A DNA stretch of 32,235 bases. Source: a bacterium. Its GTDB lineage: Bacteria; UBA9089; CG2-30-40-21; SBAY01. The notes beneath the pieces are model-generated. The model was not told the DNA's origin. It ran no database searches and was given only the letters and a program-made list of their open reading frames with translations. The stretch spans positions 1 to 32,235 of the forward strand of contig JBFLYA010000016.1 of the NCBI GenBank assembly GCA_040757115.1, read 5' to 3'. Below, piece by piece: positions 19,691 to 31,794 of the stretch. Positions within the stretch are counted from its first letter, which is position 1. The number at the start of each line of letters is the position of its first letter. The position numbers and the translations under genes were made by a program.

Positions 19691-20389
19691 TTATAATCCT
19701 AAATAATACACCTTTGGTTTTGAGCCTAAATCCGGGCGAATTGGGTGTGCTTTACCGCTTGCGACTAATTTAGCCACTTCACTGTTTGGGTCATTTAAGT
19801 TACCAAAAAACATCGCTTTGTTTGGGCAGGATACTACACAAACTGGCATCTCCCCGTTATCTACACGGCTCACACAAAAGTCGCATTTTTCCACTACCCC
19901 ATGTTGTCGTTTTGGGGAATCAGAATTAGTATATCCTTCTTGATGTTTAAACACAAAAGACCTGGATTTATACGGACAGACAATCATACAGTATCGACAA
20001 CCAATGCACCGGTGCTCATCAATTAACACAATGCCATCTTCGCGTTTAAAAGATGCCTTAACCAGGCAGACCTTAACGCAAAACGGGTCTTCACAATGAT
20101 TGCATAATAAAGGAACAGGTTGAGATTTGGCGTCTGGCACCTTTGGTGTTACACTGGCGACTCGAATCCAATAATTATCCAAAGACACATTATTTTCTTT
20201 TCGGCAAGCATCCATACACACAGTACAGCCTTCAACGCATTTGGTAACATCAATCACCATTCCCCATTTATTTTTTGCACTGGCTTTAATATCCTTTGCT
20301 AATAGAGAAGAGACCAATTGCGGTAATGGTCCCATTGCAGTTCCTATAGCTAACCCGCCGCCTATTTTGAGAAATGTCCGTCTATCCAT
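19691..20389 (-). CDS. dsrO: DsrO periplasmic Fe-S protein with Tat signal
   Basis: MDRRTFLK; CNHCEDPFCVKVC, CIGCRYCMIVCPY, GVVEKCDFC. Confidence 0.93.
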   Translation of the reverse strand: MDRRTFLKIGGGLAIGTAMGPLPQLVSSLLAKDIKASAKNKWGMVIDVTKCVEGCTVCMDACRKENNVSLDNYWIRVASVTPKVPDAKSQPVPLLCNHCEDPFCVKVCLVKASFKREDGIVLIDEHRCIGCRYCMIVCPYKSRSFVFKHQEGYTNSDSPKRQHGVVEKCDFCVSRVDNGEMPVCVVSCPNKAMFFGNLNDPNSEVAKLVASGKAHPIRPDLGSKPKVYYLGL

Positions 20390-20394
20390 TTATC

Positions 20395-20579
20395 TCTCCT
20401 GAAAATCGGGACTCGGGACTCGGGGTTCGGGACTCGGGAAGGCTGGTAGCCGCACGACCCATGCTCTGCATGGGTACCCCGAGCCTGCGTTGCTCGACTT
20501 CAGCATCCCCGCCCGCATCCTTTCTTTATTTTTTATCTTCCTTTGTGCCCACTCACCGTGGACATGTTCGTTTCTCCTG
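20395..20579. mobile_element. CCTGAAAAT-type unit at the dsrO RBS
   Basis: Flanked by tctcctg at 20395-20401 and 20573-20579. Ends in the conserved hairpin site 20528-20579. Contains (CGGGACT)n. Confidence 0.75.
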
Positions 20580-20602
20580 TCTCCTGTCTGTATCCTCCCT
20601 CT

Positions 20603-20995
20603 CTACTCTCTACTCTCCGTAATATGGCAATTCCAGCAATTCGGTTGGACATCAACATAATTATGACATCTATCACAAAAATCTGCTTTATTAGAATGAC
20701 ATTTCATACAGGTTTTCTGAAGACTTTTTTCGTATCTGACGCCATCAATAATTCCGACCTCTCTATTGCCCTGACGAATGACCGCCTCCCTCCATTCGTG
20801 AAGCAATTTCATATGTTCAGTCCTCATTACATCTTTTGGCTTGACACACTCTTTTTTAGACATTTTATTGATAACAGGCGTGTCAAGACCTGGTTCAGGA
20901 TTAGAAGATGCCTTCACCAGATTATAGAAGAATGGAAAACTTATTAATCCCACAAAAATAATCAAACCAGGAATTATTTTGCCTTTATCATACAT
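20603..20995 (-). CDS. dsrJ: DsrJ triheme cytochrome c
   Basis: MYDKGKIIPGL, MRTEHM.LL..WR..V.R, CMKCH, FCDRCH, CWNCH. Confidence 0.95.
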   Translation of the reverse strand: MYDKGKIIPGLIIFVGLISFPFFYNLVKASSNPEPGLDTPVINKMSKKECVKPKDVMRTEHMKLLHEWREAVIRQGNREVGIIDGVRYEKSLQKTCMKCHSNKADFCDRCHNYVDVQPNCWNCHITESRE

Positions 20996-24649: not shown

Positions 24650-25145
24650 GTAACCGTTCAGGGCTATACATTAGAAGTGTAAACAAGGAGAAATGGGGAA
24701 AAGGGAGAATTGGAGAAATGGCTCAAACTTTTTCTTGCTCCACCCTTCGGACATCAATCCTGGAGTCTGCGAAATTTACCAGTAACCCTATTTCTTTATC
24801 CACTGCTCTAAGGTATGATCTAACCTGATTATAATACTTCCCACTTATCTCCTCAACAGTTTTAATCTCTACCACAATCTCATCTTCAACAAAAAGATCA
24901 AGTCTATGAACCCCAACCTCGACACCTTGATAGAATATCTTGACTTCTTTTTCTGATTCAAAGATGATGTTCTGTCTTGCAAACTCAACCTTCAAGGCAT
25001 TGTGATAGATGCTCTCCAGAAAACCAGGTCCTAACTTTTTATGGACATTAATACAGGCATTAATAATCCTATCAGTTAACTCTTCTTTTCTCCACTTCTC
25101 CATCTTCTCCCTTTCTCCTCATTTTTATCCTACCTGAACCCTTAC
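24650..25145. mobile_element. 496-bp GTAA-MITE with 8-bp TSD carrying an intact GxxExxY gene in GGAGAA arms
   Basis: gtaaccgttcagg / cctgaacccttac. ttatacac at 24642-24649 and 25146-25153. Confidence 0.93.
24723..25103 (-). CDS. GxxExxY protein (PD-(D/E)XK nuclease-like)
   Basis: VHKKLGPGFLESIY, RLDLFVEDEIVVEIK, QVRSYL...GLLVNF. Confidence 0.93.
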   Translation of the reverse strand: MEKWRKEELTDRIINACINVHKKLGPGFLESIYHNALKVEFARQNIIFESEKEVKIFYQGVEVGVHRLDLFVEDEIVVEIKTVEEISGKYYNQVRSYLRAVDKEIGLLVNFADSRIDVRRVEQEKV

Positions 25146-25481: not shown

Positions 25482-25545
25482 AATTTTACACCTCCTCTTT
25501 GTTTGGCAATTTATCTCTTATTAAAAGAGTTGTCATTATTGTAAA

Positions 25546-25947
25546 GTAGAGAGTAGAGAGTAGAGAGTAGAGAGTAGAGAGAAAATTTTTCCTCCACCCT
25601 GTTTTTTCCCTATTTTCATTCTCATTTGTGAACCCACGGTTCATAGGCGTTTCCCCTGAAAATCGGGACTCGGGACTCGGGGTTCGGGAAGAAAGAAACT
25701 CTCAGCAATTCCCCCTTAATAAAGGGGGTTAGGGGGTTGTCCTTCTCCCATTTTCATTGCCCTTTGTGAGCCTTGGCTCATGTCCGTTTCCTCTGAAAAT
25801 AGCGAATTAGTGAATTAGTATAGTATCCACAGATTCGTATCTTATGGTTTAGAACAGATATTCCCCCTTAATAAAGGGGGTTAGGGGGTTGTTCTTCCAT
25901 TATTTTCATCCCCCTTTGTGAGCCGCAGGCTCATGAGCGTTTCTCCT
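25546..25947. repeat. tandem array of three CCTGAAAAT-type units
   Basis: Conserved site attttcat..tttgtg-hairpin-cat..cgtttc.cctgaaaat at 25612-25663, 25750-25800 and 25902-25947, with variable 86- and 101-nt fillers. Confidence 0.85.
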
Positions 25948-26011
25948 TGAACCTGACAACCATTGCCTGTTGTTTCACTTTAGATGGCTAAATAGTTATA
26001 AAAGAAATACA

Positions 26012-27484: not shown

Positions 27485-27672
27485 GGTGGTGTCTGAAAAT
27501 AACTCTAATAGTGAAATCTATGCAGATTTGGTGTCCAAAAGGGAGTAACCGTTCAGGGCTATACATTAGAAGTGTAAACAAGGAGAAATGGGGAAAAGGG
27601 AGAATTGGAGAAATGGCTCAAACTTTTTCTTGCCCTACCCTTCGGACATCAATCCTAGATTAAGACACCACC
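27485..27672. mobile_element. GGTGGTGTCT-ended element containing a truncated copy (27545-27656) of MITE 24650
   Basis: ggtggtgtct / agacaccacc ends. 27545-27656 is nearly identical to 24650-24761, including the GxxExxY 3' end. Confidence 0.75.
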
Positions 27673-27745
27673 GAAAAAACAGGTGGAGGAAAGATTTTCT
27701 CTCTACTCTCTACTTTCTACTCTCTACTTCCTAATTTTCAGGAGA
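27673..27745 (-). repeat. truncated CCTGAAAAT-type unit with (AGAGAGT)n, an inverted copy of 25546-25608
   Basis: Minus strand tctcctgaaaattaggaagtagagag..aaaatctttcctccacctgttttttc. Confidence 0.8.
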
Positions 27746-28621
27746 ATGCTTACTCTTATTTACCAATGGGAATCCCATTGTTTCTCGTATTTTAATATAC
27801 CCCTGGGCACATTGTCGGGCTAAATTGCGTATTCTGGCGATATAACCTGTGCGTTCGGTGACGCTAATTGCCCCGCGGGCATCTAAGATATTAAATGTAT
27901 GAGAGCATTTTAATACACAGTCATAAGCCGGGAAGATGAGGTCTTTTTTTATTAATCTTATTGCTTCTTTTTCGAACATTTGGAATAATTTAAAATACAT
28001 CTTAACATTGGCGGCTTCAAAATTATATTTAGAAAACTCAACCTCGGTTTGGTGATGCACCTCACCATATTTAACTCCATTACCCCATTCAATATCAAAT
28101 ACAGAATTTTTCCCTTGCAGATACATTGTGATTCGTTCAAGACCGTAAGTAAGTTCAACTGAGATAGGTTCAAGTGGCAAACTGCCGACTTGCTGGAAGT
28201 AAGTGAACTGGGTTACCTCCATCCCATCAAGCCAAACCTCCCAGCCTAACCCGGCAGCACCGAGTGTCGGAGATTCCCAATCATCTTCAACAAATCGTAT
28301 ATCGTGTTCTAATGGATTTATCCCAAGGGCAATCAGGCTATTCAGATAAGTTTGTTGAATATTTTCCGGTGAGGGTTTGATAATTACCTGAAATTGATAA
28401 TAATGTTGAAGCCGGTTAGGATTTTCTCCATATCGACCATCAGTTGGTCTGCGAGATGGCTCAACATAAGCTACCTTCCATGGTTCAGGACCTAAAACCC
28501 GTAAAAATGTCGCCGGATTAAAAGTCCCTGCCCCAACTTCAATATCATAAGGTTGTGTAACTAAACAACCTTGCGATTTCCAAAAAGATTGTAAATTTAA
28601 TATTATCTCTTGAAATGTCAT
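27731..28621 (-). CDS. glyQ: glycine--tRNA ligase alpha subunit
   Basis: [55 protein letters not shown]. Confidence 0.98.
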
Positions 28622-30298: not shown

Positions 30299-30805
30299 TT
30301 AGAATTCCCGCAGGAAGATTAATTCATTTATAATTGAAGCAAATTGTCGTGGTAAAAAGGCTAATAGAATCTTGACCACCCAATATAAGTGGGGAATAAT
30401 TTGAGAGGAGTTAATTAACTTGTTGGCAAATGGCAATTTAGCTAAAATTATAACGATAATTACCGCGATTATCACTCCTCGAACAAAACCAAATGCTATC
30501 CCTCCAACCCTATCTAACCAGTTTAGCGATAATTTCTTTAATGTTTTTTGAAGAAAGACTCCAATAAGATTTATCAAGACACACACAATTAAAAATATAA
30601 GACCATAGGCAATTATATCTGCCCAAAAGGATGATTTGATAAATCGGATTAAAAACAGGGCTATTTTTGAATATAGTAGATTAGCCACTATAATCCCGGC
30701 TATTATCGAGAGCAGTGAGAATACTTCTTTTATCAGCCCTCTAAACAGACCAAAAACCATACTGATAATGATAATGACTAAAAAGAAAATATCTAATGGA
30801 TTCAT
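30299..30805 (-). CDS. cvpA: CvpA family membrane protein
   Basis: MNPLD...GLFRGLIKEVFSL...LDRVGGIAFGFVRG. Confidence 0.9.
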   Translation of the reverse strand: MNPLDIFFLVIIIISMVFGLFRGLIKEVFSLLSIIAGIIVANLLYSKIALFLIRFIKSSFWADIIAYGLIFLIVCVLINLIGVFLQKTLKKLSLNWLDRVGGIAFGFVRGVIIAVIIVIILAKLPFANKLINSSQIIPHLYWVVKILLAFLPRQFASIINELIFLREF

Positions 30806-31319
30806 TTCTCCTGTAAATAGCCGATGTCAGACGTAAGACAAGGCTTATTGCTTTTTCATAAATAGGTTCCTCTTTTGGGGAGAGCGATAGCAAGAAGAAC
30901 TTTAATGTAAATATCAAAATGCAAATATCAAAATTACAATGCAAAATGCAAAAATACTTGTAAATTAACAAAGTAGCTGGAGAATATTTTGATTTTTGAT
31001 TTGTAATTTTACATTTTGATGTTTGATTTTTAATTTATTTCCCCTGAAAATGTCCGTAAGTCATTGTAATTGCTTGAGTTACAAAATTACATTTTCATTG
31101 TCCTTTGTGAGTCGCAGACTCATGAGCGTTCCCCTGAAAATAGCCGTAAGAATAGAACACGGATGACACGGATTTAACGGATTTTCGCTGATTTTTTTCT
31201 CTTTTTTCTGTCTTCTGTCTTCTATCTTATATCCGCGAATATCCGCATTATCAGCGTCATCAGCGTGCTATTATTTTTCATCTTCCTTTGCTCCCTGTGG
31301 GCATATCCGTTTCTCCTGT
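30805..31319. mobile_element. array of CCTGAAAAT-type units at the cvpA RBS, with empty arm cassettes at 30905-31032 and 31155-31268
   Basis: tttctcctgt at 30805-30814 and 31310-31319. Conserved sites at 31091-31141 and 31273-31318. Unit starts at 30810 and 31043. Confidence 0.75.
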
Positions 31320-31320
31320 T

Positions 31321-31794
31321 TTACACATTTTCCAATTCTAAAATTAGTGCTTCTTCATTACAGTTTGGGAAATGGATACACTTAATGCATTCTCCCCAGA
31401 TTTTATGTGGTAAAGTAGCTTTATCAACTAACTTAAATCCAAATCTCTTGAAAAAATCGGGATTATAGGTTAAGACAAAGATTTTATTTACCTCAAGTTC
31501 TTTTGCAGAAGCAATTGCGGAATCAAGTAATTTAGTGCCTATCCCTTGTTCAGTCATCTCTCTTTTTACAGCTAAAGACCTTATTTCAGCCAGGTCTTTC
31601 CAGACAATATGCAAGCCACAACAGCCAATTACCTGACCATCTCTTTCTGCAACAAAAAAATCTCTCATCCCTTCGTATAACTCACTCAAAGAACGAGGTA
31701 AGAGATTACCTTTCTGGGCATAAGAGTTAATAAGTTGTTGAATTTCATCAATATCTCTAATTTTGGCTTTACGGATATAAATCTTTTCTTCCAT
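31321..31794 (-). CDS. argA: GNAT N-acetyltransferase, short ArgA-like N-acetylglutamate synthase
   Basis: LLPRSLSELYE..RDF, LAEIRSLAV, LPHKIW.EC..C.HFP.C.E.A. Confidence 0.8.
   Translation of the reverse strand: MEEKIYIRKAKIRDIDEIQQLINSYAQKGNLLPRSLSELYEGMRDFFVAERDGQVIGCCGLHIVWKDLAEIRSLAVKREMTEQGIGTKLLDSAIASAKELEVNKIFVLTYNPDFFKRFGFKLVDKATLPHKIWGECIKCIHFPNCNEEALILELENV

Follow-up and report, generated by a model that had tools for sequence, protein, structure and literature searches.

REP/BIME repeats are small hairpins and short motifs that form mosaic clusters in transcribed intergenic DNA, mostly after genes, and they are not known to supply a Shine-Dalgarno (SD) sequence; the REPs themselves are short palindromes tagged with GTAG or CGTC and have an associated RAYT gene. 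Elements derived from IS200/IS605 (PATE) insert 3' of a short conserved target without duplicating it and have subterminal hairpins, with a Y1 transposase encoded in the genome. Other intergenic repeats bring a translation signal of their own. The MIRU elements (mycobacterial interspersed repetitive units; Supply et al. 1997, as reviewed in PMC12548453) are described as short, mobile, tandem intercistronic repeats situated at start codons, which supply a translation signal and are held to insert with little effect on the downstream gene, and whose internal open reading frame (ORF) is translationally coupled to that gene by a -4 nt overlap. Neisseria REP2 and Borrelia IR-A/IR-B, described as intergenic repeats without long terminal inverted repeats, provide the genes behind them with a promoter, a ribosome-binding site (RBS) and an ATG (PMC3184786), and hairpins built of heptamer simple sequence repeats as well as TAACTGA direct repeats have also been described (PMC4692102, PMC4679880). 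Here, we focus on a family of chained repeat units that end in an SD-like heptamer and are found in a bacterial stretch of 32,235 nucleotides (the window; GenBank assembly GCA_040757115.1, contig JBFLYA010000016.1, positions 1 to 32,235 of the forward strand). The family belongs with the intergenic repeats bringing their own translation signal, its closest analogues being MIRU in behaviour and Neisseria REP2 and the Borrelia IR in content.

The window holds five copies of CCTGAAAAT where 0.78 would be expected (none of 100 shuffles reached five), and in the genome to which it belongs (G000; 4.32 Mb in 462 contigs, 99.87% complete) this motif occurs 394 times and TCTCCTGAAAAT 160 times. It is the reverse complement of ATTTTCAGGRGAA, which on the coding strand forms the 3' end of repeat units. 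Sorted by upstream sequence, the 394 copies fall into many body families, all with a common 3' end and a common 5' module, the heptamer-rich arms upstream of the motif being of the types CTACTYT, GGTCTAT, ATCTGCG, TAATTCG and GACTCGG. The motif itself has two common sequels, a gene start or a second conserved module with a small hairpin (hp1). From 5' to 3', a unit reads AGGAGAA, about 6 nt (ACGSNC), an ATG that opens hp1 (6-8 bp), CACAAAKGRGGATGAAAAT, a variable long hairpin body and ATTTTCAGGRGAA. The scheme is therefore AGGAGAA, the 5' module with hp1, the hairpin body, and ATTTTC followed by AGGRGAA, and units are joined head to tail through this common heptamer. The bodies are degenerate heptamer runs, often inverted pairs, or nested miniature inverted-repeat transposable elements (MITEs). 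In having such runs of 7 nt, they resemble the heptamer-repeat hairpins, which as far as their descriptions go lack the conserved SD-bearing junction module and 5' hairpin of the G000 units. The 7-nt pair TGAAAAT...ATTTTCA closing the body is the sole feature reminiscent of terminal inverted repeats. The inverted ends of a classical MITE and its duplication, which varies from site to site, appear to be lacking: the unit ends, AGGAGAAACG... and ...ATTTTCAGGAGAA, are direct and not inverted, and the flanking heptamer is the same everywhere.

The hp1 hairpin is real. Its copies were gathered through flanking anchors only, with no complementarity required, and 139 of the 172 inner stem cells nevertheless pair in the 43 distinct versions whose core is 11 nt long (there are four length classes); each of the first three inner pairs shows several Watson-Crick types, that is, compensatory variants. 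From the CATG of hp1 to the next 3' end the median distance is 130 nt. Predicted folds of the sense strand are stabler than those of the antisense strand (-50.0 kcal/mol compared with -43.6; of 109 units, 75 favour sense and 34 antisense, p 5e-8), and in six folds listed the final 3-7 nt, and with them part of the heptamer, stay single-stranded; a stable hairpin followed by an exposed SD would fit a role at the RNA level. As a separate observation, the hp1 module (24-30 nt, ACGSNCATG...CACAA) is exactly missing at five otherwise normal junctions (C7 -4375, C35 -32378, C156 -9763, C214 and C248 +2745; C numbers are contigs), and it may be a tiny insertion of its own nested in larger units. Elhai and colleagues are reported to have described, in 2008, very small mobile repeats of cyanobacteria (SDRs) as tiny nested elements recognised by their precise absence, and the five junctions show a likeness to SDRs so described.

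Where the units lie with respect to genes was determined from strict ends, defined as ATTTTCAGG[AG]G, of which G000 has 265. These are followed by hp1 in 101 cases (internal junctions), by other repeated DNA in 49, by a start codon no more than 30 nt away, for ORFs of 60 codons or longer, in 81, by unique DNA without such a start in 32, and by a contig end or gap in 2. The distance from AGGAG to the start peaks at 5, 6 and 7 nt (13, 17 and 15 cases), and 61 of the 164 ends without a following hp1 have AGGAG 4-9 nt before a start codon. Among 17864 co-oriented intergenic positions drawn at random, 995 do (5.6%; odds ratio 10, p 2.6e-33). As a rule, an array's final unit puts AGGAG 5-7 nt before the next start, at the place where an SD is expected. 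Since the 3' end of the 16S rRNA (...GGATCACCTCCTTTCT / ...CACCTCCTTTCT) contains a CCUCC that matches the AGGAG of the unit, AGGAG is a canonical SD core here. Orientation follows the genes as well: the gene downstream of an end is co-oriented in 179 cases and opposite in 29, and both flanking genes are on the strand of the unit at 119 ends but both on the other strand at 7 (p about 1e-27). At least about 60 G000 genes, including dsrO in the core sulfur-metabolism operon, have a repeat-borne AGGAG at the expected SD place. The preliminary description had proposed that units insert into, and regenerate, SD sequences and had expected their ends to be enriched at RBSs. Enrichment is what we find, and regeneration agrees with the position and sequence of the ends, from which downstream genes appear to use the AGGAG of the unit as their SD; the insertion half of that proposal is what we infer below.

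By lying at start codons, in tandem and in the orientation of the genes (the counts being the 61 of 164 ends, the 101 hp1 junctions and the 119 against 7 flanking pairs), the units behave like MIRU. They differ in that the mini-ORF starting at the hp1 ATG (median 14 codons) stops a median of 82 nt before the unit 3' end, and within 15 nt of the ATTTTCAGG end in none of 105 units, so that coupling of the MIRU type does not apply. Moreover, the signal here is an SD heptamer common to both unit ends, the hairpin bodies are mosaic, and host phylum and sequences are unrelated. With REP2 and the Borrelia IR the units share an RBS carried directly upstream of ORFs. Unlike in REP2, however, the start codon is native, the same codon being found in unit-free orthologues, and the ATG of the unit opens the mini-ORF only; the G000 units also form chained mosaic arrays, which the consulted portion of the REP2 description does not report (PMC3184786).

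Could the family be nothing more than a preferred extended SD context, or chance, with no repeat element involved? The exact 22-nt junction pattern, looked for in species-representative genomes, recurs as a repeat in one further record (5 loci), while at 7 of the 12 pattern loci, in unrelated bacteria, it is simply a single gene's normal leader and ATG; the junction closely mimics a translation start. This explanation can nonetheless hardly be true, given the 101 internal junctions with hp1 and the repeated body found upstream of 74 of the 81 start-adjacent ends, which are therefore true units rather than a leader that the organism happens to favour. A covariance model (R2) built on the 52-nt junction has at least 143 matches in each of G000 and G001, a genome of the same genus. 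Among family relatives in other genera (G002-G005), R2 matches number 34 in G003, 37 in G004 (weaker) and 2-4 in G002 and G005, and every remaining genome of the 41 searched has at most 3. In G003 the architecture is the same and unit ends stand against start codons, with the family scattered over unrelated loci. A limited literature search found no publication describing this repeat family.

Our preferred reading, which stands about an even chance of being right, is that insertion takes place at or just 3' of AGGAGAA-like sequences and that the unit's own end restores the SD. New units would enter at or directly 3' of such sequences, mostly native RBSs or the ends of resident units; since all units end in the same heptamer, the RBS would be rebuilt and the site left open for the next unit. 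This would explain the tandem arrays, the direct repeats observed around them and their tolerance in operons, dsrMKJOP for example. Recombination between conserved junctions, unequal or ectopic, would then make arrays turn over fast. Entry at AGGAGAA-like sequences is put forward as the best single explanation for the AGGAGAA left boundaries of arrays, for growth at junctions and for operon tolerance.

The GNAT-cvpA interval of the window illustrates both the chaining and the turnover. The gene upstream of cvpA, called argA in the preliminary description, encodes a GNAT N-acetyltransferase of 157 aa (NF005840, 218.7 bits, cut-off 154); the match of cvpA to the colicin V production family is weak (45.6 bits, below the cut-off of 264). 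The direct repeat said to bound the interval is present, as TTTCTCCTGT at 30806-30815 and 31310-31319 (on the coding, minus strand: ACAGGAGAAA), and the gap of 515 nt holds three units, all on the minus strand. Their left outer heptamer AGGAGAA (31311-31317) begins 4 nt past the GNAT stop (31323-31321), a boundary also present in G001. Unit 1 (31129-31310) has a degenerate 5' module, a body and the 3' end ATTTTCAGGGGAA at 31129-31141 (R2 match 31274-31319, 29.8 bits). Unit 2 (31039-31128) has a canonical 5' module, the hairpin TGAGTC/GACTCA, a short hairpin body and the same 3' end ATTTTCAGGGGAA at 31039-31051 (R2 match 31091-31141, 71.7 bits, E 9e-17). Unit 3 (30806-31038) is without the hp1 module, has an AT-rich palindromic body and ends in ATTTACAGGAGAA at 30806-30818 (weak R2 match 30800-30818). 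Copies of CCTGAAAAT in this gap lie at 31043-31051 and 31133-31141. The AGGAG of the last unit ends merely 2 nt before the cvpA ATG (30805-30803), a spacing shorter than the modal 5-7 nt of the family, which is a caveat for this site.

Comparison with G001, whose cvpA protein is 99% identical, was made on a sample of 1.25 Mb, with 603 kb in alignment and 96 collinear gaps; among the G000 ends that could be compared, 26 are conserved and another 14 fall into gaps. The G001 interval has the same left and right boundaries with two entirely different units inside. Fixed boundaries around different units are also found at C2, C18, C28 and C322, and at two C189 arrays for the left boundary only; turnover within fixed boundaries is fast. 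The short argA-cvpA junction expected on collapsing the direct repeat was not found in relatives, the gap being full of other units in G001 and of other repeats in G002, G003 and G005, where heptamer palindromes of other kinds occupy 100-250 nt. The sequences upstream of cvpA in G002-G005 (loci L003-L006) include unrelated heptamer palindromes, GGAGGAT/GAGAGGAT runs and TTTTGGA/TTTTCGA runs. Other genera thus fill the same gap with unrelated palindromes, and the junction attracts repeats repeatedly. In the more distant genomes G014 and G015 the GNAT gene runs directly into the cvpA start, which makes a tight ancestral junction plausible, though not the specific sequence predicted.

Such constant outer boundaries are what one would see if the units had no dedicated mobility and spread by slippage, unequal crossing-over and ectopic conversion between junctions of 13-52 nt, in the manner of a variable-number tandem repeat (VNTR), with AGGAGAA as a microhomology offered by native RBSs. 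Tandem copies with a 104-111-nt period (C400, C2, C35) and chimeric hairpin arms (such as TGAACC...GGCTCA) point the same way, as does the lack of any transposase found. A microhomology of seven bases is, however, a slender basis for conversion into new loci, and well over 100 arrays lie at unrelated G000 loci, 52 of them with identifiable starts bearing hp1; since units also sit at unrelated loci in another genus, a route to new sites is needed. Recombination without mobility is in our judgement rather unlikely.

A derived insertion is seen between dsrJ and dsrO (profile scores 171.9 bits for DsrJ, cut-off 100, and 270.5 for DsrO, cut-off 200). The two TCTCCTG copies reported at this junction are present at 20395-20401 and 20573-20579, with an additional third copy at 20580-20586, and the first lies 6 nt ahead of the dsrO ATG (20389-20387). 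A single unit occupies 20395-20578 on the minus strand (R2 match 20529-20580, 34.6 bits), consisting of the left AGGAGAA (20572-20578), the hairpin TGTCCAC/GTGGGCA, a GACTCGG-heptamer arm and the 3' end ATTTTCAGGAGA (20395-20406), and it is absent from G001. The collapsed junction predicted from the repeats is not what G001 has in its place: the unit-free site there has the SD GGGAGGG, 11 nt from the ATG and within the stretch of dsrJ that overlaps dsrO. The dsrJ gene reaches or enters the dsrO start in G001 as it does in G007, G009, G010 and G011, which are relatives at the order level; this tight junction is the outgroup state, and the G000 unit is therefore a derived insertion. The end of DsrJ was rewritten as well: a partial repeat of GAGAGTA heptamers with a second CAGGAGA (20579-20622, minus strand; recognised from its sequence and by comparison with relatives) stands in place of the native dsrJ end and gives the last codons and the stop.

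The flanking repeats invite the question of whether they are target-site duplications. The heptamer is present at all 101 internal junctions bearing hp1 and at most array starts, so its recurrence at both ends of an array is expected under any mechanism, and the flanks are not demonstrated duplications. Nor does a CAGGAG core describe the target: the base before the heptamer varies at the 52 array starts (C 20, A 19, T 7, G 6), and the C is therefore assigned to the ATTTTC of the unit. The A/G variants of a unit's two flanks agree above chance (odds ratio 3.2, p 0.0075). When arrays with a variant left heptamer are listed (11, of which 8 have a readable first unit end), one of the 8 repeats the variant at the right (C167, AGAAGAA on both sides). 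The flanking heptamer may be a copy of the target or may travel with the unit. In the same pair of genomes, indels of classical MITEs from other families are clean, with inverted ends and target-site duplications of 7-10 bp, so the comparison could have detected a clean duplication. One such element is a 235-nt classical MITE between dsrO and dsrP of G001 (L051, G001:C44, 3880-4116), lacking in G000 (window 19692-19698), with inverted ends GTAAGCGTTCAG.../...CTGAACGGTTAC, CACAGAG heptamers and a GATTATA duplication; its family has 8-bp duplications at other loci.

Several observations weigh against insertion at SD sequences. No clean pair of an empty, non-unit target and a filled site was found in the 603 kb of aligned G000 and G001 DNA. 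At five unit-free G001 sites a native GGAG stands before the same start codon, 1-5 nt from the place of the unit's GGAG: the native spacing in G001 and that behind the unit in G000 are 12 and 7 nt at C37, 11 and 6 at dsrO, 7 and 6 at C130, 9 and 6 at C452, and 9 and 5 at C405. That all five have a native GGAG speaks for the preferred reading; yet the spacer from SD to start is unpreserved, which would not be expected if units simply inserted and regenerated the site. One pair alone is clean and counts in favour of insertion, C411 and its G001 orthologue L097, where the G000 unit lies between two copies of ATTTTCAGGAGAA and G001 has one ATTTTCAGGAGGA; this is either insertion beside an existing unit-like end or loss by recombination between repeats, and the "empty" G001 site already resembles a solo unit end. 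The R of AGGRGAA depends on what comes next, being A 67 and G 14 before genes but A 49 and G 52 before hp1 (p 2e-6), and for the CTACTTCCT bodies A 30 and G 3 against A 7 and G 9; this looks like selection for a working SD, for which targeting is not needed, or else it points to a heptamer that does not strictly travel with the body. Intact native SDs persist well downstream of the array end at dsrC, C28, C240 and C278. Exact AGGAGAA occurs at SD positions in 45 unit ends and 114 times free of units, and a further 365 unit-free copies lie in other non-coding DNA. Finally, the use of the unit's AGGAG by downstream genes is deduced from where it lies and how it reads.

Some of these points would follow if units had no target preference and landed anywhere in transcribed intergenic DNA, selection keeping those copies whose AGGAG is at a working distance while the DNA in between is lost. 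The different spacers of unit-bearing and unit-free orthologues agree with this, as do the preference within one body family for AGGAG over GGGGA at gene-adjacent ends, the array that stops 60 nt upstream of dsrC and leaves its own SD intact, and the at least seven ends (C2, C68, C189, C298, C375, C422, C429) that adjoin the 3' ends of convergent genes. Yet the left boundary of an array, where no SD is needed, is still AGGAGAA at 36 of 52 array starts without an upstream unit, and at 21 of the 33 with unique upstream DNA. At the C167 site in G001, a three-unit array comes right after an AGGAGAA within the loop of another repeat, with no gene start there. Between 76 and 81 of about 110 true array ends adjoin a start codon, a proportion that would require very efficient loss of the others. 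Insertion without a target is for these reasons unlikely, though both it and the recombination account are compatible with insertion at AGGAGAA-like sequences, and each is partly supported.

A solo ATTTTCAGGAGG also stands directly behind sigma-70-like promoters (TTGACT-N17-TATATT and TTGACA-N18-TATACT) at two genes, L097 of G001, the C411 orthologue, and G000 C189 +5585. It may be either the source of the unit end or the scar of a lost unit.

A bolder version of the preferred reading makes the heptamer both attachment site and payload, the unit being a "portable ribosome-binding site" that propagates itself and has SD sequences as its specific integration sites, possibly by a new recombination mechanism. 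We regard it as conceivable but doubtful. The native SD would pass to the ATG-hairpin mini-cistron of the unit, and the host gene would get a fresh SD nearer its start. If this were true, sister species that rapidly exchange one unit for another within fixed boundaries would be adjusting translation and mRNA structure individually for each gene. SD-targeted insertion, if true, would in addition amount to a safe-harbour system found in nature, its site defined by 7 nt, and a test case for MIRU-like movement. Repeats that can enter operon junctions without silencing the next gene represent a little-studied tolerance, perhaps exploitation, of selfish DNA. As the two congeneric species have different arrays at loci that are otherwise 97-99% identical, the arrays form a layer that evolves fast and might alter both the rate of translation and the stability of mRNAs.

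What might move the units? No transposase linked to them was found in G000. The Y1 transposases (IS200/IS605, RAYT) were considered as movers and rejected: none of the seven Y1_Tnp matches in G000 is flanked by units, and Y1 counts do not follow unit counts, G003 having 34 junction matches with two fragmentary Y1 matches, G006 five Y1 matches with two junctions, and G009 four with none. A 5' hairpin and a fixed left-flank heptamer would fit PATE, whereas the Y1 genes neither have units at their flanks nor track unit number. Mosaic clusters of small hairpins are common to the units and REP/BIME, from which the units differ in a consensus without a GTAG or CGTC tag (judged by eye, no tag search having been made), and in that no unit flanks the RAYT-like Y1 genes. 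The highest-scoring Y1_Tnp match (151.8 bits) corresponds to the C-terminal portion of a single open frame of 1120 codons at G000 C119 1549-4911 (minus strand), which is either a fusion or the product of a missed stop or frameshift. Another Y1-transposase-like gene (G000 C430 13372-13842) lies inside a CRISPR-looking array of a 37-nt repeat, with repeats on both sides. None of the multi-copy genes could be tied to units either; by names given by eye, these comprise giant surface proteins, a 299-aa family in eight copies, a 332-aa family in seven, GxxExxY genes and integron-integrase-like fragments. A role in titrating CsrA through GGA motifs was set aside, the CsrA gene not being found in the 99.87%-complete genome.

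The window has four sites in all, the other two being a three-unit array ahead of dsrC and an inverted partial unit at glyQ. The former lies between a cobyrinate a,c-diamide synthase gene and dsrC (25543-25947, minus strand; R2 matches 25902-25948, 25750-25800 and 25612-25663, 61-68 bits); its last unit is shortened, and the native dsrC SD, GAGGAGG, is retained about 60 nt downstream. The inverted copy reported at the 3' end of glyQ (GlyQ profile score 510.5 bits) is likewise there, as a CTACTYT arm and ATTTTCAGGAGAA (27734-27746) on the plus strand. This partial unit (27674-27746), identified by its sequence and common to G001, where the match starts from window position 27655, adjoins the glyQ 3' end, and the final codons and stop of glyQ (27731-27733) fall within it. 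The terminal codons and stops of both DsrJ (window 20603-20625) and GlyQ (27731-27748) come from repeat DNA, and the family profiles align DsrJ residues 1-124 of 130 and GlyQ residues 1-289 of 296. Rfam covariance models gave no match at the gathering score over the whole window and one sub-threshold match in 30700-31400 (E 0.88).

Repeats also shape the assembly. Sequences of 16 nt present at least three times make up 17% of G000 (the repeat mask was built on 16-mers, a 12-mer mask being too permissive at 80% of the genome), and many unit ends have a flanking gene on one side of the contig only; taken together, these findings indicate that the repeats evidently break assembly, and they account for the fragmented assemblies in this lineage. 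DNA contigs of three runs likewise yielded unitigs broken at repeats, along with cross-mapping joints, and told nothing about empty sites. Other repeated genes are nearby as well. The window contains, at 24723-25103, a gene for a GxxExxY protein that is a member of a five-copy family, and a comparison of G001 L064 5335-5905 with G000 C415 16220-16230 reveals a 569-nt indel upstream of a gene, which carries a GxxExxY-like gene (by eye) with CACAGAT-type heptamer flanks.

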